Shown piece by piece: positions 15,253-46,968 of a stretch of DNA of 64,000 nucleotides (its first letter is position 1; each line of letters begins with the position of its first letter). The notes below the pieces were generated by a model that saw only the letters and a list, made by a program, of their open reading frames with translations, searched no databases and was not told the DNA's origin. Position numbers and translations under genes: made by a program. This DNA comes from an uncultured Bacteroidales bacterium (GTDB taxonomy: Bacteria > Bacteroidota > Bacteroidia > Bacteroidales > CAIWKO01), in the NCBI GenBank assembly GCA_964599365.1, contig CAZRFL010000007.1, forward strand, positions 12,909 to 76,908. The letters are read 5' to 3'.

Positions 15253-16572
15253 ATGTTCTGTAGGAAATTGTCAATGCAAATCATAAAACAATACGGGGTT
15301 ATCATCCTGCTTTTGTTCATTGGCCTTGTGATTTCAGGCTGCCACCGCGACCTTTCCGATCCCTTTGTTCCCAAGGATAAGAAGTTCAAAACCCAGTTCA
15401 AGTTCGACAAGAAAAGGAACCGTACCGTCGAGAAGCATGTTTCCTTTGCCAAAGAAAAAGGCAAGTTCAAAGATTCATTTGCTGGCAGCCACGGCAGGGG
15501 CAAAAAAGGCGGCGGAAGCCACGACTCCTATTCTTCCAAATCGAAAAAGAGCTATGGAGGCACCCGCTTCAGTAAATCGAAAGGACGTGTGGTAGAAAAA
15601 GGATTTTTACCCTCCAAACGCAACAATGATTCCTACTCTTCCAAGGCGGGCCACAAGGACAAGAAGCACCGCAAGGGCGGCAAAGACTCCTACTCCTCGA
15701 GCATGAAGAAACATGAGAGCGGCAACCGTTTCAGCAAGTCGAAGAACCGGGTAGTCTCTTTCAAAAATGGCAGCAAAGGCAAACGAAACGGCAGCGAAAG
15801 CTTCGGATCCAAGAGAAAGGACAAGTCAGGCAATTTCAGTTTCAGTACCTCCAAAAACCGTGTGGTTTCCAACAAGGGAAGCCGGGGAGGAAACCGTGGG
15901 GGTAAAGACAGTTACGGTTCGAAAGGCAAAAGGAACTCAGGGAATTTCGGGTTCAACAAATCGAAAAAGCGGGTGGTGTCCTTCAAAAAAGGCGGCCGCA
16001 ACCGCATCAGCGGTGCAGACAGCTATGGAGGCAAGACCAACAGCAAGGGCAGCATGTTCCGCTTCGACAAAAAGAGCAAGCGAATAGTCTCGAAAAAGAA
16101 ATTCCTGGTATTCGGTTCCAAGAAAAATAGCCGCGACATGGGTTCCTATGCCGGTAAGAAAAGAAACTCGGGAGGTATGTTCTCCTTTAATTCGAAAAAG
16201 CACAGGGTGACCCGAACCAAGGCGGTCTTCAACGGCTTCAAACGTTTCAGGGCGGGCGACAGCTTCGGAGGAAAGCGAAAAAGCAAGGGAGGCGAATTCA
16301 GCTTCAACGTAAAGAAAAAACGTGTGGGCAAAAGAACCCTGCTATTCAAACCCCGCGACACCGACCCGGGTTCTTTCGGAAGCAAAGGAGGCAAAAGAAA
16401 TTCGCTTTACAAACAGAACTCTTTCAGCAAGAAGAAAAAGCGCATACACCATCGCAACGGCTTCTTCTGGGATCTGTTCGGAGGCCGCAACAAAGTCAGC
16501 CGAAAGAAAGACGAACTGCAACTCGACCTGTTCGATCCGAAACAAAAACACAGAATGCATCTTGCTCGATAA
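15253..16572 (+). CDS. Extremely basic, K/R/G/S-rich tandem-module lipoprotein (orphan)
   Basis: 439 aa. Lipobox LVISGC. About 8 modules of ~37 aa with the pattern DS[YF]G[SG]K-x-SG-x-F-[SGR]-F-x2-SK-x-R[VI]V, for example GNRFSKSKNRVVSFK, GNFSFSTSKNRVVSNK, GNFGFNKSKKRVVSFK, SMFRFDKKSKRIVSKK. It is the only long ORF in the region. An alternative start exists at 15274. Confidence 0.65.
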   Translation: MFCRKLSMQIIKQYGVIILLLFIGLVISGCHRDLSDPFVPKDKKFKTQFKFDKKRNRTVEKHVSFAKEKGKFKDSFAGSHGRGKKGGGSHDSYSSKSKKSYGGTRFSKSKGRVVEKGFLPSKRNNDSYSSKAGHKDKKHRKGGKDSYSSSMKKHESGNRFSKSKNRVVSFKNGSKGKRNGSESFGSKRKDKSGNFSFSTSKNRVVSNKGSRGGNRGGKDSYGSKGKRNSGNFGFNKSKKRVVSFKKGGRNRISGADSYGGKTNSKGSMFRFDKKSKRIVSKKKFLVFGSKKNSRDMGSYAGKKRNSGGMFSFNSKKHRVTRTKAVFNGFKRFRAGDSFGGKRKSKGGEFSFNVKKKRVGKRTLLFKPRDTDPGSFGSKGGKRNSLYKQNSFSKKKKRIHHRNGFFWDLFGGRNKVSRKKDELQLDLFDPKQKHRMHLAR

Positions 16573-17343: not shown

Positions 17344-18216
17344 ATGAAAGTTTCGGGATTTACCTTTGTGCGTAACGGCGTTAAATACGATTATCCTGTG
17401 GTGGAAAGCATACGTTCCATTTTACCGGTGTGCGACGAACTGGTGGTGGCCGTAGGAAATTCGGAGGACAATACCCTCGAACTGATCAAAAGTATCAACG
17501 ACCCCAAAATAAAGATCATTGAGACCATTTGGGACGATAGCCTGCGCAAAGGCGGACGGGTGTTGGCCGTAGAAACCGATAAGGCTTTTGAGGCCATTGC
17601 CGACGATAGCGACTGGGCTTTTTATGTGCAGGCCGACGAGGTGTTTCACGAGAAAGATATGAAGGCCATTTACGATGCCATGGTGCTTTATAAAGACGAC
17701 AAACATGTGGAGGGACTCATCTTCCGTTATCTGAATTTCTTTGGTTCTTACGATTATGTGGCCGATTCGCACAAATGGTTGAAGGATGAGATTCGTGTGA
17801 TACGCAACGATAAAACCATACGCTCGTGGAAAGATGCCATGAGTTTCCGCCGCGATGCCAAGGTGCTTAACGTGAAAAGAGTGGATGCCGACATTTTCCA
17901 TTACGGTTGGGTGAAGGACCCCAGAACCCAGATGGTGAAACGCAAAGATTTCGAAAAACTATGGCACGACGACAACTGGGTGGATAAAAACGTGGGCGAT
18001 GCCGACGAATTCGACTACCAGAACATTGATATGCTTTCGCTTTACCAGGGCACTCATCCCGAGGTTATGAAAGAAAGAATTGAGCGTGTGAACTGGAAGT
18101 TCTCCTTCGATCCCGTGAAGCGGCTGAAAGTTTCCTTCCGCATCAAACTCCTGAACTTCGTCCACAAATATCTGGGCTGGAAGATAGGCTTGTTTAAGAA
18201 TTACAAGGAGATATAA
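17344..18216 (+). CDS. Glycosyltransferase family 2-like protein
   Basis: N-terminus MKVSGFTFVRNGVKYDYPVVESIRSILPVCDELVVAVGNSEDNTLELI and YVQADEVFHE. I prefer the ATG at 17344 (1 nt after the deacetylase stop) over the track start at 17299, which overlaps the upstream gene. Confidence 0.6.
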   Translation: MKVSGFTFVRNGVKYDYPVVESIRSILPVCDELVVAVGNSEDNTLELIKSINDPKIKIIETIWDDSLRKGGRVLAVETDKAFEAIADDSDWAFYVQADEVFHEKDMKAIYDAMVLYKDDKHVEGLIFRYLNFFGSYDYVADSHKWLKDEIRVIRNDKTIRSWKDAMSFRRDAKVLNVKRVDADIFHYGWVKDPRTQMVKRKDFEKLWHDDNWVDKNVGDADEFDYQNIDMLSLYQGTHPEVMKERIERVNWKFSFDPVKRLKVSFRIKLLNFVHKYLGWKIGLFKNYKEI

Positions 18217-18341
18217 GCTGGAAATAGGAATTAAGGCTTATCCCTGTTCGGCTTAGGCCAGCCTAAGTCGTTTCTATTCTTTCTGGTTTCGCCTGATTTT
18301 TTAATCACATAAATCAATAAAATCAGATGAATCATCACCTG

Positions 18342-18356
18342 CCTGCCGAAGGCAGG
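18342..18356. other. Small GC-rich hairpin (6-bp stem, 3-nt loop) between convergent genes
   Basis: cctgcc-gaa-ggcagg, 3 nt beyond the stop of the XRE gene. No adjacent U-run, so it is not a canonical terminator. Same style as the hairpins at 23478-23617. Confidence 0.5.
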
Positions 18357-18358
18357 GT

Positions 18359-18712
18359 TCAGACAATTTCCCCACTTTCAGATATATCTTCTTTCTTATC
18401 GCAATCGAAGCACAACCTTTTACACTCGGGCATGGGGCATTGCCTTAGATGTTGAAAAGCCGGAGCTCCCGTGAAGGCTCTTAATTCGGGGGTGTTGTGA
18501 AATTCAAAATCTGTAACTCCCAATCCTTTATACAGTTTTTGTTTGTTTCTAAAAGAAATCTCTTTTTTCCCGTTTTCAATATCAGAAAGTACACTAATAT
18601 GCAATCCTGAAGTCTCGTGCAGGGTTTGCAAACTCCAATTTTTATCGTTACGAAGCTTCAGTGCCCTTTTGCCAAATTCTTTTAAGTATTCTTTAGATTC
18701 CTTATCTGCCAT
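18359..18712 (-). CDS. XRE/Cro-C1-type HTH transcriptional regulator with a C-terminal 4-Cys cluster
   Basis: 117 aa. HTH_3-like segment WSLQTLHETSGLHISVLSDIENGKKEISFRNKQKLYKGLG. C-terminus CPMPECKRLCFDCDKK (C-x4-C-x3-C-x2-C). Confidence 0.8.
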   Translation of the reverse strand: MADKESKEYLKEFGKRALKLRNDKNWSLQTLHETSGLHISVLSDIENGKKEISFRNKQKLYKGLGVTDFEFHNTPELRAFTGAPAFQHLRQCPMPECKRLCFDCDKKEDISESGEIV

Positions 18713-18969
18713 GGGTTACAGAGTTTTTACCAAATCAAATTTTCATTAATCCGTGAAAACCATTTCTTGACTTGTGCTGGTTAAGAAATTACCTTTACAC
18801 TCACATAGAAAATTTATAATACCAAAAGTAAATTTTTTTTAATTGCGTTCTATTAGTTGTAAAATAATTTTATAGTTCTTTCACATATTACAAGTTTTCC
18901 GCTTGCAGCAAAAGGCAATAGGCGATTGGTAAAATAAACGGAGGGCACTGCAGAATTTATTACAGAGTC

Positions 18970-19242
18970 TGCAGCCTGCGTTATGCATCCTGCACCACGC
19001 GTTTTTCGTTCTGCATTATGCGTTATTCATTCTGCACCATGCGTTATTCATTTTGCACTATGCGTTATTCATTCTGCACTATGCGTTATTCGTTCTGCAT
19101 CATGCGTTATTCATTCTGCACCATGCGTTATTCGTTTTGCACCATGCGTTATTCATTCTGCATCACGCGTTATTTGTTCTGCACCATGCGTTATTTGTTC
19201 TGCACCATGCGTTATTCATTTTGCACCTTACGTTTGCATTTT
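18970..19242. repeat. Tandem array, 13 units of exactly 21 bp (consensus tgcaccatgcgttattcattc)
   Basis: Units start at 18970+21k (k=0..12) with no indels. The ten central units differ only by transitions. It lies between the divergent XRE gene (ATG at 18712) and the orphan gene (ATG at 19346). Confidence 0.95.
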
Positions 19243-19345
19243 GCCTTCAGGAACCTTACCCATAATTTTTTTATCATACAGTTAATCAATAAAATAAAAT
19301 AACAATTGTTTCGTAAACCCAATTATTTATTTAAAATCCAAACCC

Positions 19346-20248
19346 ATGAATTATAAAGTTATTGTACGCGACAAAGCCCAAATGAGGGGCGATAAGTTTC
19401 TCACTGATAATAATACGGCATTGAGTGCCATTACCTCCTATGCACCTATTAAAGCCAAATGGGATGCCGGATTTTTGCTTACGCAAAAAGCCAAACAGAA
19501 AATGTATGAGCAATACGGGTATATCACCTTTGACAAGAAGTTGGTAAGGGCCGAAATGATCAATATTTTTCTGCCCCAACTAGCCAAGGGCAGTAGTCAG
19601 ATGTTTGTGGCCGACAGGCTTGATTTGGCTAAGGCTCTGGATATAGCTCCTACATTTTTAACGCATTGTGGGGGTGAAGCCTGTATAGGTCGTGCCACCG
19701 ATTTGCTGAATATAGTTACCACCAATTCGGGTGTAATTACTTCGATTACCGTCACTGACAGAGCCGATATGACCGATGCACTGAAAGCTTTTAAGGACAT
19801 AAACGGTACTCCACAATCTCTCATTAAAAAGAGAAAAGCCGAAGGCACCGAAATTATGATTCCTTTGCTCAACGATCTGGATGTTACCAAACATTTTTTG
19901 ACCAAGCATATTTCGTCGCATAATCCCGATTTGTTGGCTGACTGGATTGCCATCATCAAGGTGGGTAAGTCGTCGTCGGCACGACATCTGTCGCTGGAGA
20001 TAAAATTGGTTGACGATGTAACGGGGGTGGCTGTGGTGAAGGGAGTAGTTACTTTGAGCAAAGGTATAGAAAAACATAAAAAACTCAGCAGCACAAAAGG
20101 TTTTGCACGCTTCTATAGTGTAATGGTGGGCACCTGGTCGTTTACGGTGGATAGCGAATTATATGAAAGCGCTAACATGTCGAATGTTGGAATTGATAAT
20201 ACAAAAACGGTTAGATTTACCATTAAACTGAAAAAGAAAAACTATTAG
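19346..20248 (+). CDS. Orphan protein: ~215-aa helical N-domain plus a C-terminal carboxypeptidase-regulatory-like (prealbumin-fold) domain
   Basis: 300 aa. The C-terminal IKLVDDVTGVAVVKGVVTLSKG...STKGFARFYSVMVGTWSFTVDSELYES...VRFTIKL fits the CarboxypepD_reg pattern by eye. The N-domain is not recognised. Confidence 0.6.
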   Translation: MNYKVIVRDKAQMRGDKFLTDNNTALSAITSYAPIKAKWDAGFLLTQKAKQKMYEQYGYITFDKKLVRAEMINIFLPQLAKGSSQMFVADRLDLAKALDIAPTFLTHCGGEACIGRATDLLNIVTTNSGVITSITVTDRADMTDALKAFKDINGTPQSLIKKRKAEGTEIMIPLLNDLDVTKHFLTKHISSHNPDLLADWIAIIKVGKSSSARHLSLEIKLVDDVTGVAVVKGVVTLSKGIEKHKKLSSTKGFARFYSVMVGTWSFTVDSELYESANMSNVGIDNTKTVRFTIKLKKKNY

Positions 20249-20401
20249 TCAGCCATTCGCCACTACGGTGGGAAAGAATGATTTACTAATGAGGCGGATG
20301 TTTTTTGTTGTATGGCTGAAAACCGGCTCAAGGGTATTTGTTGCCGCAGACTATTCTGTTGATGCCCGGATTATACTGAAAGCCAGCCCAGGCGAGCAGG
20401 C

Positions 20402-23326
20402 TTATCTCAACATCATTTTACACATTACCTCAACGGGATGCAGGGCTTTGCGGCCGGTGCCGTCTTTGATCTGGTGGCGGCAGGAGGTGCCCGGAGCCAC
20501 AATGAGTTGGTTCATGGGGGTCTTGCGGATGGCGCGAAACAACACCATTTCGCCTATCTTCATCGATATTTCGTAATGCTCTTTTTCGTAGCCAAAGGAG
20601 CCTGCCATACCGCAGCAGCCTGATTTGATCTCTACCACATGGCAGTTTTCGGGTATCTGCAGCATGTTTTTGGTGAAATCGGTTGAGGTGAGGGCTTTCT
20701 GATGGCAGTGTCCGTGGAGTTTTATGTGCATTTCTTTGGTCGAGAACGACTCTTTGCGGATTCGACCGGCCTGAAACTCGCGCATAAAAAACTCTTCGAA
20801 CATCATGCAGTGAGGGGCCATTTTTTCGGCTGCCTCCTGAAGTTCGGGCAGGGCCAGATCGGGATATTCGTCGCGGAAAGTGAGTATGGCCGAAGGTTCC
20901 AGCCCTATCAAAGGGGTTTCGGCGCTGATGATATCTTTAAGTGCCGCAATGTTGAAGTTGGCAATGAGTTTGGCTTTGCGCAACAGTCCTTTTGAAAGGA
21001 AAGCGCGGCCGCTTTCGGCGTGGGCCGGAATGATCACCTCATAGCCCAGGTTGGTCAGCAGTTTCACCACCCTGATACCAATGATGGAATCGTTATAATT
21101 GGTAAACTCGTCGTTAAACAGGTACACCCTTCCGTTGGGGAAGCTTTTCCCTTCAATTTTTTGGGTATATTTTGCGTACCAGGCAGTAAGGGTTTGCTTG
21201 TTCAGCAAGGGTATGCTGCGTTTGGGCGCAAATCCCAGCACCGATTTGATGAAGCCCGAAAACATGGGCGTCTTCGCGAAAAAGTTGAAAGCAGAAGGCC
21301 AGATGGCTCCCAGTTGGTTCACCCGGTTGATGTTGGCTATCATGCGGGTGCGCAGGCTTATGCCGTGCACATCGTAGTAATGCTGCAGAAATTCGGGCTT
21401 ATATTTGGCCATATCCACATTCGACGGGCATTCCGACTTACATCCCTTGCATGAGAGGCAGAGGTCCATCACCTCGTATATCTCCTTATGGTCGAAAGGG
21501 TTTTGTTTTTCGGAATTTGTCAGAAACTCGCGCAACACATTGGCACGGGCGCGGGTGGTGGTTTTTTCGTCGCCGGCTGCCATATAGCTGGGGCACATGG
21601 TGCCGCCGATGATGCTCGATTTGCGGCAATCGCCCGAGCCGTTGCATTTTTCCACAGCCCGCAAAATACCGTGATCTTTAGAGAAATCGAAAACGGTATC
21701 AATTTTCCTTACAGGCTTGCCCGGTTCAAACCTGAGCATGCTGTTCATGGGCGGGGTCTGGGTTATTTTGCCGGGATTGAAAATGCCGTTGGGGTCCCAG
21801 GTCTGCTTGATGTCCTGAAGCAGGGCGTAGTTGCGGTTGCCCACCATCATTGGGATGAATTCGCCGCGGAGGCGGCCGTCGCCATGCTCACCGCTCAGCG
21901 ATCCCTTATATTTTTTTACCAGTCGCGCCGTCTCCAGGGCCACAGTGTGGAACAATTCCACGCCTTTGGGGTCCTTGAGGTTCAGCACGGGCCTGATGTG
22001 CAACTCGCCGGTGGCAATGTGGGCGTAATACACCACGGGCAGGTTCAACTTGTCCAGTATGGCCTGCAGTTCTTCTATATAATCGGGCAGCACTTCGGGC
22101 GCTACAGCCGTATCTTCAATCACGGGCACGGGTTTGGCATCGCCGGGATAATTGCTCAGCACGCCGAGTCCTGCCTTGCGCAGTTCCCACACCTTTTTGA
22201 TGTCGCCGTCCTTCACCACAGGGAAATGGTAGCCAAAGCCGCTTTCCCTCATATCGGCTTCCATGGCCTTGCATTTGGCTTCTATCATGCCGGGCGCCTC
22301 TTCGGCAAACTCTACTATCAGCAAAGCACCGGGCTCGCCCTGAAGAAAGAAGCGGTTCTTCTTTTGGGTGATATTTTCTTTGGTAAGATCCAGTATAGCT
22401 TTGTCCATCAGCTCCACAGAGGTCGGCATATGCCGCAGTGCGATGAGGTTGGCCTGCAGGGCTTCTTTAACCGATTTCATGTGTACGCAAACCAGCACCT
22501 TATCTTTGGGAGGCAGGGGGACGAGGTTGAGTTTGATCTCGGTGATGAAAGCCAGGGTGCCTTCGGAGCCGGCAATCAGCTTGCAGAAGTTGAATTTCGA
22601 GCCTTTTTCGCTGAAAGGCTGGCAATCCATCAGCAGGTCTATGGCGTAGCCGGTATTGCGTCGTTCGAGTGTCCTGGCGGGATATTGTTCGGCAATCTCT
22701 TTCTGGTTATCCTTATCCGAAAGTATCTTATGGATGTTGCGGTAGATGTCGCCTTCCAGGCTGGGCAGGGTAAGCTTTTCCAGAAATTCTTCCTGGCTGA
22801 GTTCGCCGAAAGTGGCTTCGCTGCCGTCGCTCAGAATGGTTTTCAGCTCCATCACATGATCGCGCGTACTTCCGTAGATGAGCGAATGGGCCCCGCAGGA
22901 GTTGTTGCCCACCATGCCGCCCAACATACAACGGTTGGAAGTGGAGGTTTCGGGGCCAAAAAACAAACCCAGTTTTTCCATTTCCTTGTTCAGTTCGTCG
23001 AGCACCACGCCGGGTTCTACCGAAACCCAATGATTTAGTATGTTGAATTTGAGGATGGAGTTCATGTAGCGCGACACGTCTACCACCATGCCGTTACCTA
23101 CCACCTGTCCGGCCAACGAAGTTCCGGCGGTGCGGGGAATGAGGGGTATCTTGTTTTCCGAAGCAAAGCGGACTATCTTTTTGATGTCGTCGGCATTCTT
23201 CGGACGAGCTACGGCCAAAGGCTTTTCGCGGTAAGCGGAGGCATCGGTGGAATAAATGATCAACTGAAGGCTGTCCGTAAACAGGTCACCTTCCAAGGAA
23301 TTCTTCAAATTGAGCAAGTTATCCAC
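20402..23326 (-). CDS. YdiJ-like FAD-linked oxidase fused to Fe-S/CCG domains (probable D-2-hydroxyacid dehydrogenase)
   Basis: 974 aa. FAD-binding IPLIPRTAGTSLAGQVVG. Ferredoxin-type CNGSGDCRKS...CPSY and CLSCKGCKSECPSNVD. Cys-rich CCG-type SGCCGMAGSFGYE. The start codon at 23326 is GTG. Confidence 0.85.
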   Translation of the reverse strand: MDNLLNLKNSLEGDLFTDSLQLIIYSTDASAYREKPLAVARPKNADDIKKIVRFASENKIPLIPRTAGTSLAGQVVGNGMVVDVSRYMNSILKFNILNHWVSVEPGVVLDELNKEMEKLGLFFGPETSTSNRCMLGGMVGNNSCGAHSLIYGSTRDHVMELKTILSDGSEATFGELSQEEFLEKLTLPSLEGDIYRNIHKILSDKDNQKEIAEQYPARTLERRNTGYAIDLLMDCQPFSEKGSKFNFCKLIAGSEGTLAFITEIKLNLVPLPPKDKVLVCVHMKSVKEALQANLIALRHMPTSVELMDKAILDLTKENITQKKNRFFLQGEPGALLIVEFAEEAPGMIEAKCKAMEADMRESGFGYHFPVVKDGDIKKVWELRKAGLGVLSNYPGDAKPVPVIEDTAVAPEVLPDYIEELQAILDKLNLPVVYYAHIATGELHIRPVLNLKDPKGVELFHTVALETARLVKKYKGSLSGEHGDGRLRGEFIPMMVGNRNYALLQDIKQTWDPNGIFNPGKITQTPPMNSMLRFEPGKPVRKIDTVFDFSKDHGILRAVEKCNGSGDCRKSSIIGGTMCPSYMAAGDEKTTTRARANVLREFLTNSEKQNPFDHKEIYEVMDLCLSCKGCKSECPSNVDMAKYKPEFLQHYYDVHGISLRTRMIANINRVNQLGAIWPSAFNFFAKTPMFSGFIKSVLGFAPKRSIPLLNKQTLTAWYAKYTQKIEGKSFPNGRVYLFNDEFTNYNDSIIGIRVVKLLTNLGYEVIIPAHAESGRAFLSKGLLRKAKLIANFNIAALKDIISAETPLIGLEPSAILTFRDEYPDLALPELQEAAEKMAPHCMMFEEFFMREFQAGRIRKESFSTKEMHIKLHGHCHQKALTSTDFTKNMLQIPENCHVVEIKSGCCGMAGSFGYEKEHYEISMKIGEMVLFRAIRKTPMNQLIVAPGTSCRHQIKDGTGRKALHPVEVMCKMMLR

Positions 23327-32888: not shown

Positions 32889-33083
32889 ATTGAATGTTTA
32901 TACGACATCCAACACTCTTACTTTATCCTATACGTATGTTCATGCGATACCAAATACTCTTACTTTATGTCATTTGAAAGTTCATAGATGGTAAAACACT
33001 GTTTTCGGATATCGTATGAAAGCACTGATAGGGTAAAACACTCTTACTTTATGTCGTATGAATGTCCGTACGACATAAATTCC
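32889..33083. repeat. Tandem repeat, ~4.7 units of exactly 42 bp
   Basis: The core a(a/c)actcttactttat recurs with 'act' anchors at 32914, 32956, 32998 and 33040 (spacing 42/42/42). The flanking gtatgaaNg... parts are also related. It sits in a 1-kb divergent intergenic region. Confidence 0.85.
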
Positions 33084-45306: not shown

Positions 45307-45788
45307 GCTATTAGGCTGTTAGGCTAATAGGCTTTTAGGAAGTGGGCTGCGAGGAATCATGCAAACAAGGTGTTCTTTGCGGTCAGAATTTTTTTAACCA
45401 CAAAGCTCACCAGGAAGTCACCATGGTCACAAAGTAATTCTGCCTCCATCTACTACATTTGGCCAATTAAATCGCCACAGATTCGCAGATTTTATTCTAC
45501 TAAGCAATAATATTCGCTTACGCAGAGCTAAATTTGATTATAATTAACGCTGAGCGTAAATTTAAAAATTTCATTTTTAAATTTTACGAAAGTAATCTGC
45601 GAACGGAGGGAAGCGACCTCACGAAGTCCTATGAAATAAAATAATATTCTGAGTAATCTGCGGCTATGAATTTCAGTTATCCATTAGGGTGATATTAAGC
45701 TCACTTAATCGAAATACTGAAATCTGGCTCCGGTCTTCCGTCTTCTGAATTCTTACTTCTGAATTCTGACTTCTGAATTCTGACTTCC
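45304..45788. repeat. Intergenic block of short-period stutters and inverted 'word' repeats
   Basis: taggctNN 8-mer x 5 (45304-45340, beginning at the porin stop codon). cgcagatt/aatctgcg words in inverted orientation (45478-45490 versus 45593-45600 and 45653-45661). 14-bp unit acttctgaattctg x 3.5 (45738-45788), abutting the HD gene stop. Confidence 0.75.
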
Positions 45789-46432: not shown

Positions 46433-46674
46433 GGTCTGGGTTTATGAAGGGGTTAGGTCTGCAAATTTAGGAAATAATGGGCAGGCGATAACAACAAATT
46501 AGAACAGGGTTGTCTTGAGATATGCGGGGGTTGAAATTTAATAGAATGATTCCGGTTTATGTTGGCGAAGATTTCTTATAATAGGTTGTAATATAAGATA
46601 TTGTGTTGAAATTATTGTGTTTGACAGAATGTAAAATATGGGAAAACGCCTCATTCCGGCATCGTGTTTTATAG

Positions 46675-46968
46675 CTCTGCCTTCAGGCGGCGCGCCTCCG
46701 CCCGAAGGCGGCAGGGCTCTGCCCTCAGCGGGAATACATCCCTCATCAGGCAGCGTGATTCCATTTTCAGGCAGCAGGGCTCCCTCCTCAGGCGGAAGAA
46801 CGCTTCCTTTGAACGACACAACTCTATCCTCAGGAAGAGTCCTGCCATCTCATGTAAGCAAGTTTCCCTCCTCAGGCAGTTCAGCTCCATACTTTGGCAG
46901 TATGCCTCTGCTAGAAGGGGGAATGTTTTTTCCCGAAGCTTTCCCTCCTCAAATTCAGTCTTACTGTA
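46675..46968. repeat. Degenerate tandem array, 14 units of exactly 21 bp (consensus ~ctcYnYcctcAGGcRG-n5)
   Basis: The (c/a)agg-type anchor occurs at 46684, 46705, 46726, 46747, 46768, 46789, 46831, 46873, 46894, 46915 and 46936, with degenerate versions at 46810, 46852 and 46957. All sit within 1 nt of a 21-bp grid. The region is open in several frames on both strands (track ORFs 46638..46976, 46664..46969, 46669..47028, 46538..46819). Confidence 0.85.

Follow-up and report, generated by a model that had tools for sequence, protein, structure and literature searches.

The intergenic DNA in front of a gene of an uncharacterised Bacteroidota protein family, within a 64,000-nucleotide stretch from an uncultured Bacteroidales bacterium (hereafter the window), carries a tandem array with a 21-bp period, and arrays of this kind precede the family gene in each lineage with readable upstream DNA. 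The reading we prefer, and hold only tentatively, is that the window array is a nucleotide-level cis element of a module composed of a divergent XRE regulator gene, the array and the family gene, and not a gene constrained by its peptide. A first-pass annotation, made from the sequence and a list of its open reading frames (ORFs), had pointed out that differences between the units fall mostly on the third codon position of a frame that would encode (MRYSFCT)n (here frame f0, the two other plus-strand frames being f1 and f2), and had weighed a heptapeptide-repeat micro-protein against a cause at the DNA level. The (MRYSFCT)n product is not supported in this window.

The array across the family and in the window

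Contigs were fetched for family relatives that are 22-39% identical in protein. In all six lineages with readable upstream DNA (window type, P0003, P0006, P0011, P0127 and P0130) the start codon of the family gene is preceded, at a distance of 77-275 bp, by an array with a 21-bp period, made up of about 11-16 units wherever the whole array is readable (Table 1); the contigs of P0002 and P0005 end 75-92 bp upstream of the gene. The unit consensuses are unrelated between lineages (best cyclic matches 9-12 of 21 bases, p 0.08-0.99), and the presence of an upstream array in six of six lineages with mutually unrelated units argues for the nucleotide-level reading. A resemblance between MRYSFCT and MKYKITT, at 11 of 21 bases (p about 0.3), was discarded as repeat-on-repeat noise, and the heptad ORFs compared across lineages showed no similarity beyond such noise. 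In the 159.6 kb examined, arrays of at least four copies and a period of at least 9 bp all belong to the family set, one 9-bp repeat excepted. At least two different array-gene pairs occur in one genome, since L013 and L023 both come from the metagenome-assembled genome (MAG) GCA_037135075.1; the family protein of L023 is 31% identical to that of the window, and its unit sequence differs from that of L013 too. The pairing of array and gene across the family is the signature of a cognate pair, either of sites and binder or of repeat ORF and partner. No description of such arrays was found in the literature searched, and nothing similar in family libraries.

Turnover within the arrays is fast. 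The number of units shifts by one or two between strains (L013/L014, L024/L025/L027 and the P0153-P0160 variants), a difference to which collapse in short-read assembly may contribute. The array of L022 keeps a TCTAAAT core every 21 bp, the other 13-14 bp having diverged (lag-1 autocorrelation of variability 0.63, p<0.001), and the retention of this core in units of which the remainder has diverged again favours a nucleotide-level function. Short-read contigs often end in or beside arrays (L004, L006-L008, L010, L011, L016-L018, L020, L021, L026 and L029) and the family is mostly found on very short contigs; the arrays systematically break short-read metagenome assemblies right beside the gene. 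A separate 8-bp repeat, TTTAGCTG, occurs in 8.6 copies at L025:513-596 (equivalent to L024:1197-1280), about 600 bp upstream of the array-bearing ORF.

The array in the window, with the unit consensus ATGCGTTATTCATTCTGCACC, occupies the 633-bp gap that separates the divergent XRE gene from the gene for the 300-aa family protein, and 98 bp lie between its end and the start codon of the latter. Tandem Repeats Finder (TRF) delimits it at 18968-19234 (period 21, 12.7 copies, score 359), and 11 unit matches at no more than three mismatches stand against 0 expected. A weak higher order of 42 bp is seen in the alternation of TCA and TCG, and two proto-units, more degenerate still than the outer units, lie 5′ of the array at 18934-18975. 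Two PstI-type CTGCAG sites fall within these proto-units on the 5′ edge (18949-18973), and MluI-type ACGCGT palindromes are present in those units that have ACG in place of ATG. Further short tandem repeats called by TRF in the window (32952-33062, 45742-45787 and 46674-46793) comprise 2.6 copies of 42 bp, 3.3 copies of 14 bp and two 21-bp repeats of 2.4-2.6 copies.

The same strain recurs in six other samples. Its array is identical in full in L003 and L005, and over the units present in L004 and L006-L008, which start inside the array; the contigs L010 and L011 stop roughly where the window array starts. A sister lineage (L002, L013 and L014) is 97% identical to the window in the family protein, 91% in the XRE protein and about 96% in non-repeat intergenic DNA. 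Its array also has 13 units, yet 29 of 273 bases differ from the window (10.6%), and the array of L014 is two units shorter than that of L013. A metagenome contig from another organism, L001, has 16 units that are 18/21 identical to the window consensus, the three differences falling one per codon position, and nothing outside its array can be aligned with the window. That the unit is kept to this extent without alignable flanks is an additional argument for the nucleotide-level reading.

When the 38 units of these three arrays were pooled, G3, T6, T7, T14 and T16-A19 were (nearly) invariant, giving the blocks GCGTTAT and T.TGCA. These blocks take in positions that would be synonymous in a coding frame (CGT and TGC), and the fact that conservation in window-type arrays follows nucleotide blocks including such positions is likewise in favour of a nucleotide-level role. 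Mean entropy at codon positions 1, 2 and 3 of f0 was 0.38, 0.68 and 0.47 over the same units, so that second positions are the most variable.

Codon phase and coding potential in the window

The counts on which the heptapeptide proposal was built proved exact. The ten central units contain 14 differences from the consensus, of which nine fall on codon position 3, five on position 2 and none on position 1, and seven are synonymous (TTT three times, ACT and TCG twice each). The 94-aa ORF does read MRYSFCT six times, MRYSFCI twice, TRYLFCT and MRYLFCT followed by a tail, and the minus-strand frame with the same wobble positions is closed by TAA. The third-position excess holds as a raw count but not in its significance, as the 14 differences are confined to six sites (unit positions 2, 11, 12, 15, 20 and 21), divided equally between codon positions 2 and 3 with three each. 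Counted per occurrence, the probability of at least 9 of 14 differences at one position is 0.017, or 0.05 when allowing for three phases; counted per site, that of at least three of six at position 3 is 0.30. The absence of variable sites from position 1 has a probability of 0.055, rising to about 0.17 once the empty class is allowed to be any of the three. Every one of the 14 differences is a transition, and seven are ACG/ATG and TCG/TCA/TTG alternatives, a spectrum of the CpG-decay type. Since the differences are transition-only and partly of this type, the mutational spectrum accounts for the pattern no less well than selection. No lag-3 periodicity of variability was detected along the unit, either in the window alone (r=-0.03) or pooled over three arrays (r=0.11, p=0.22). 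The third-codon-position pattern is a small-sample effect and does not go beyond chance.

All three plus-strand frames are open across the window array, with ORFs of 94, 100 and 70 aa, and the openness of f0 is therefore no evidence of coding. Extension of the ORF beyond the array, tested here and in the other lineages against dinucleotide-shuffled flanks, was not above chance (P=0.65). A codon-usage model trained on 45 window genes scored f0, f1 and f2 at -0.12, -0.53 and -0.26, and the window ORFs resemble spurious stop-free stretches (-0.13±0.20) and not real genes (0.29±0.10). The Joint Genome Institute (JGI) gene caller placed no gene in the array of L003 or L005, the two contigs with the whole array, and the f0 and f1 ORFs of the window were absent from a collection of 15 billion proteins by exact look-up. 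Protein-database searches gave no match, among the matches listed, either for the concatenated array translations (three frames each of the window, L001 and L002) or for the concatenated ORFs of L023, L019 and L016, results that carry little weight as known members were also missed. AlphaFold models the f0 ORF as a single long helix with a predicted local distance difference test (pLDDT) score of 89.5, which is uninformative for a perfect repeat.

In related arrays the codon-phase argument fails. The 29 differences between the window and sister-lineage arrays are distributed 7/12/10 over codon positions 1/2/3 of f0, and the codon changes are synonymous in 6 cases and non-synonymous in 19. The ratio of non-synonymous to synonymous differences per site (pN/pS) in this comparison is 0.57 for f0, 1.82 for f1 and 0.88 for f2, compared to 0.09 and 0.26 for the family and XRE genes, respectively, and the excess of synonymous or third-position change expected of an orthologous coding array is thus absent. 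Nor is f0 open in related arrays while the other frames close. In L002 all three plus-strand frames are open, and in L001 f0 holds a TAA and a TAA-TAG and only f2 is open throughout the array, with pN/pS relative to the consensus of 1.60 for f0 and 0.34 for f2. No reading frame is consistently favoured across the window-type arrays. The lack of detectable protein-level selection in the window lineage, together with the stops in the L001 and L018 frames, is a reason to prefer the nucleotide-level reading. Peptide-modifying enzymes, whose co-occurrence with the locus in relatives had been suggested as a check on the heptapeptide proposal, were not encountered among the window neighbours in Pfam and NCBIfam scans.

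Proposed mechanism and competing explanations

Under the nucleotide-level reading the window array would be the local copy of a family-wide feature, recognisable by a period of 21 bp (two turns of the DNA helix), by its roughly 11-16 units and by its position upstream of family genes. In the window it spans about -10 to -270 relative to a -7-type box in its last unit and lies some 150-420 bp upstream of the divergent XRE promoter; along a single face of the helix, the repeated units would expose the short motifs GCGTTAT and TGCA. The units may then be multiple putative sites for a DNA-binding protein encoded by the module, with the XRE regulator as the obvious candidate and the downstream protein as the second, and binding would set expression of the downstream gene. 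Unequal exchange in 21- or 42-bp steps would renew the units, with selection preserving the period and the core motifs.

Two features of the locus are in line with this. Bacteroidetes promoters have a -7 consensus TAnnTTTG, and a perfect match to it lies inside the last degenerate unit of the array (Table 1). With this box as promoter, the downstream transcript would start only after the array, a suggestive position given that about 0.5 such matches are expected by chance in the window intergenic region and 0.3-1 per region over the loci scanned. That the box sits in the last unit and is kept in L002 supports the nucleotide-level reading. So does the inheritance of XRE gene, array and family gene as one block, evident from the stretch shared with the sister lineage and from the differing genes to the left of 18240, which are a glycosyltransferase-like gene in the window and a MarR gene with an RND efflux gene in the sister lineage. 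A scan for sigma-70 promoters is uninformative for Bacteroidota. The idea that each pair of units is itself a Bacteroidetes promoter (TTTG and TAnnTTTG) was ruled out, as the spacing is 13 bp; 19-21 bp separate these elements in promoters of this phylum.

Several results weigh against this reading. Whereas the array, its period, its association with the family, the conserved blocks, the fast turnover and the lack of a codon-phase signal are observed, it is by inference that a protein binds the array, that this is a particular one and that expression responds, and this counts against the reading. No DNA-binding fold could be recognised in the family protein, whose isoelectric point is not consistently basic, and the small DNA-binding neighbours vary in kind, from XRE in the window to LytTR in L023, a weak helix-turn-helix (HTH) match in L019 and none beside L022 or L025. 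The DNA-level cause offered in the first-pass annotation does fit the window lineage better than the peptide, GCGTTAT and TGCA being invariant, but variability in window-type arrays is not significantly clustered into blocks (lag-1 r=0.23 with p=0.10 for the window by itself, and r=0.00 after pooling). TAnnTTTG-type boxes sit 118-265 bp upstream of the array in L019, L023 and L025, and those arrays would consequently be transcribed. In the same three loci the array-spanning ORF, on the strand of the gene and 153, 174 and 227 aa long in L019, L025 and L023, respectively, extends past the array beyond chance (P=0.027 for L019, P=0.008 for L025 and P<0.0005 for L023). Across the 14 diverged units of L022 (L022:2951-3244), unit positions 3, 9, 12, 15, 18 and 21 are pyrimidines in 84 of 84 cases (p about 0.001) and the neighbouring positions take all four bases, a strict triplet period that a pure DNA-binding model does not predict. 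Finally, the period of the arrays is always exactly 21, in seven arrays including both of L025, and as a multiple of three this fits coding too.

The latter observations form the core of the case for a translated companion ORF, an explanation we regard as a serious though less probable rival. It would be a short, rapidly evolving protein of heptad repeats, or else a long leader ORF that matters through being translated and not through its sequence, co-transcribed with the family gene from promoters such as those suggested by the boxes upstream of the L019, L023 and L025 ORFs, and represented in the window by f0. In a wider formulation, which we consider doubtful to a similar degree, the arrays would be the hypervariable cores of an unrecognised class of upstream ORFs of about 70-230 codons, built of heptad units of lineage-specific sequence, translated and acting in concert with the family protein. 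Array and cognate gene would then form a pair, the former as a repeat protein bound by its partner or as a leader ORF controlling it, and several paralogous pairs per genome would be possible.

The evidence on translation at the family level is mixed. Of the six frames of L025 (26% GC) the ORF lies in the single open one, and the flanks of this ORF are T-rich at codon position 3 (p=0.04 and 0.0007); the flanks of the L023 and L019 ORFs have no codon-position composition signal. All strain variants are intact, eight of the L025-type ORF (174, 167 and 160 aa) and two of the L023-type (227 aa), and ORFs of both types are present in the protein collection by exact look-up, from which the window ORFs are absent. 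The L025-type ORF has 5-6 polymorphic residues in 174 and its partner gene is 99-100% identical over 306 residues; the L023-type pair differs by six substitutions, five of them within the first 36 residues. The L023 ORF (L023:2806-3489) covers the array and 145 unique codons, and it scores -0.05 for codon usage (-0.14 outside the repeat), similar to spurious ORFs as does the window f0, when four real genes on its contig score 0.245-0.331 in the same model. One reading that fits both its length and its non-coding composition is selection for an open frame but not for a product. In L022 the pyrimidine pattern leaves three frames stop-free, of which the pyrimidine-ending one has no start codon, and the two others are equally open (a GTG-started ORF of 104 aa on the plus strand and an ATG-started one of 94 aa on the minus strand). 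Within the window type, only f0 carries ATG-started ORFs of 71 aa or more in the window, L002 and L001, and its pN/pS is the lowest of the frames within the window and L002 arrays (0.16 and 0.36). Against a translated companion stand the failed extension, the three open frames and the between-lineage pN/pS of the window lineage, the stops and high f0 ratio of L001, a TGA in the only open plus-strand frame of the L018 array (P0003 type), the lack of relationship between the heptads of different lineages, and the position of the sole consensus promoter box found in the window, which is downstream of the array.

It is unlikely that the array is a neutral minisatellite, or the decaying relic of an ancestral upstream ORF, sustained only by replication slippage and unequal recombination. 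The divergence of the array between the window and sister lineages is about that of a neutral rate, pS being 0.12-0.15 for the genes on either side and the neighbouring spacer differing by 4%, and the transition-only, partly CpG-type spectrum, the gain or loss of one or two units between strains and the stops in some arrays all agree with such drift. The same placement of the array in six of six lineages with proteins 22-39% identical nevertheless requires selection or a dedicated generating mechanism. Neutrality is also at odds with a unit kept at 18/21 between the window and L001 when the flanks have become unalignable, and with the identity of the array in two complete and four partial assemblies of the window strain from six samples.

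Least probable of all is an RNA-level element, in which repeats in a long 5′ leader or small RNA would be bound periodically by a protein such as the family protein, like TRAP on the triplets of the trp leader; the boxes that probably put the L019, L023 and L025 arrays in a transcript, the similar unit numbers across lineages (about 11-16) and the paralogous modules with different arrays in one MAG, suggestive of cognate pairs, speak for it, and against it are the absence of Rfam matches (window region at E<=1, seven loci at E<=0.1), the unexceptional folding stability of the two strands of the window array (z=0.40 and -1.18) and of the L023 leader (z=0.02), the location of the window's sole consensus box at the 3′ end of the array, and a family protein without a known RNA-binding fold.

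Should the pairing of array and gene be confirmed, it would give a handle on the function of an uncharacterised gene family and would offer a clean natural system for the co-evolution of a repeat array and its partner.

Family protein, gene neighbourhood and known systems

Table 1. Positions of the features discussed, in window coordinates, and the arrays of the other family lineages
Feature	Position	Strand	Remarks
XRE-array-gene module	18240..20248	.	similarity to L002 and L013 from 18240 to their contig ends (window 19912 and 19945)
XRE/HTH_3 regulator gene, 117 aa, divergent	18359..18712	-	in the block common to the sister lineage
-7-like box TACTTTTG	18823..18830	-	118 bp upstream of the XRE start codon
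21-bp tandem array	18976..19248	+	13 units: 2 degenerate 5′, 10 near-identical central (19018-19227), 1 degenerate 3′
Candidate ORF, frame f0, 94 aa, (MRYSFCT)n and tail	19018..19302	+	not supported as a gene
-7 promoter box TACGTTTG	19229..19236	+	perfect TAnnTTTG inside the last degenerate unit, 117 bp before the downstream start codon, kept in L002
Gene for 300-aa protein of uncharacterised Bacteroidota family	19346..20248	+	array upstream
Array of P0003 (L016-18)	ends ~125 bp before ATG		unit CAAYGAAGTAYAAAATAACGA; contigs start inside the array, so copy number not readable
Array of P0006 (L019)	ends 107 bp before ATG		unit GAGTAAAGGATATTGACTTTC; 11.6 copies
Array of P0011 (L022)	ends ~255 bp before ATG		unit TCTAAATGTGTCACTCGTCCT; ~14 copies
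Array of P0127 (L023)	ends ~275 bp before ATG		unit CTTTTTGAATTTGAACCTAAA; ~12 copies
Arrays of P0130 (L024-29)	enclosing ORF ends 77 bp before ATG		two adjacent arrays, TCAATCTAATAATATGTCAAT and ATGGTTTTACTTCCATTGAAT; ~8 + 6 copies

The 300-aa protein of the window has almost no close relatives. An exhaustive search returned 126 cluster representatives (50% identity), of which 87 reach E<=1e-10; the proteins are about 300 or 385 aa long. AlphaFold predicts, at a pLDDT of 95, an all-helical N domain of ten helices (residues 1-203) and a beta-sandwich resembling transthyretin and CarboxypepD_reg (residues 215-295). The N domain has no Pfam model and no structural match in PDB or BFVD by Foldseek; the matches obtained with the PDB sequence profile and with Foldseek in PDB and BFVD are confined to the C-terminal beta-sandwich. 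PADLOC and PHROGs assign the protein to no defence or phage family, and the family was found neither among 72,556 plasmids and 50,697 phages nor, by a scan with an alignment, among viral contigs.

The window neighbours identified with Pfam and NCBIfam (an S46 peptidase, a polysaccharide deacetylase, a weak glycosyltransferase match, the XRE regulator and an FAD/FeS oxidase) are those of an ordinary Bacteroidota chromosome. The XRE protein closes with a Cys-rich tail, CPMPECKRLCFDC, in its C-terminal third (18359-18500), which could bind metal. The XRE-array-gene block may be mobile or may lie at a rearrangement point. The three independent assemblies of the sister lineage (L002, L013 and L014) are each interrupted within the family gene, at residues 189-200 and shortly ahead of the C-terminal beta-sandwich, possibly owing to strain heterogeneity or a repeat. 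Elsewhere in the window (15253-16572) a 439-aa ORF rich in Lys, Ser and Gly contains about ten loose repeats of the type ...FSKSKNRVVS... and matches nothing in Pfam or NCBIfam. Two paralogous genes lie upstream of the L001 array (L001:673-1776); they encode 204 aa and no fewer than 128 aa, share 46% identity across 148 residues and are likewise without a match in Pfam or NCBIfam. The L001 contig terminates 127 bp past its array at a possible ATG.

None of the known systems compared here corresponds to the arrangement in full. The long regulatory upstream ORFs of SecM-secA, MifM-yidC2 and VemP-secDF2 combine signal or membrane segments with a defined arrest motif and are not tandem repeats. 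The family resembles them in having a poorly conserved ORF of 90-230 codons directly upstream of one gene and open in several lineages. It differs in that its ORFs are tandem repeats in which no comparable signal or membrane segment or arrest motif was seen, and their translation is putative. Contingency loci have promoter-proximal repeats with units of 1-7 bp, such as the 7-bp repeats upstream of the Haemophilus hmw genes. They share with the window the placement of tandem repeats between divergent promoters, and with the arrays of the family possibly a unit number that varies between strains (L014 compared to L013; the 174, 167 and 160 aa of the L025-type ORF), which collapse in short-read assembly may also produce, but here the units are of 21 bp, the window array is identical in six samples and the association is family-wide with a conserved period.

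A multi-core precursor of ribosomally synthesised and post-translationally modified peptides (RiPPs) would likewise encode a short repeated unit rich in Cys and aromatic residues in one frame, and the non-repeat N-terminal stretches of the L025 and L023 ORFs could be leaders. In contrast to such precursors, no modifying enzyme, protease or transporter is adjacent, no leader precedes the window repeats, the core residues are without purifying selection and related arrays contain stops.

LytTR-type sites (AgrA, ComE and PlnC) are pairs of 9-bp direct repeats with a 12-bp spacer, which amounts to a 21-bp period. The window core TGCGTTATT agrees with 7 of 9 positions of the published consensus [TA][AC][CA]GTTN[AG][TG], and L023 has a stand-alone LytTR gene on the upstream side of its array. 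The known sites are paired, however, and the present arrays have 11-16 copies (13 in the window); the neighbour in the window is XRE, the L023 unit itself is unlike the consensus, and tblastn with the L023 LytTR protein gave no match in the 64-kb window.

The iteron arrays that accompany Rep genes on plasmids of the R6K, F, RK2 and pPS10 type consist of direct repeats of 17-22 bp, usually in 3-7 units. The window differs in its chromosomal context, in its 13 units and in a downstream protein without similarity to Rep or winged-helix proteins (Pfam, NCBIfam and PHROGs). A replication origin at this site was rejected on the grounds that no DnaA box (at most one mismatch) occurs in 17979-21411, the GC skew does not change sign here and the family is not carried by plasmids or phages. 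What the window has in common with iterons is the layout itself, that is tandem direct repeats of about two helical turns (13 × 21 bp) upstream of one gene, a repeat sequence specific to the lineage with period and layout kept, and an AT-rich stretch beside the array.

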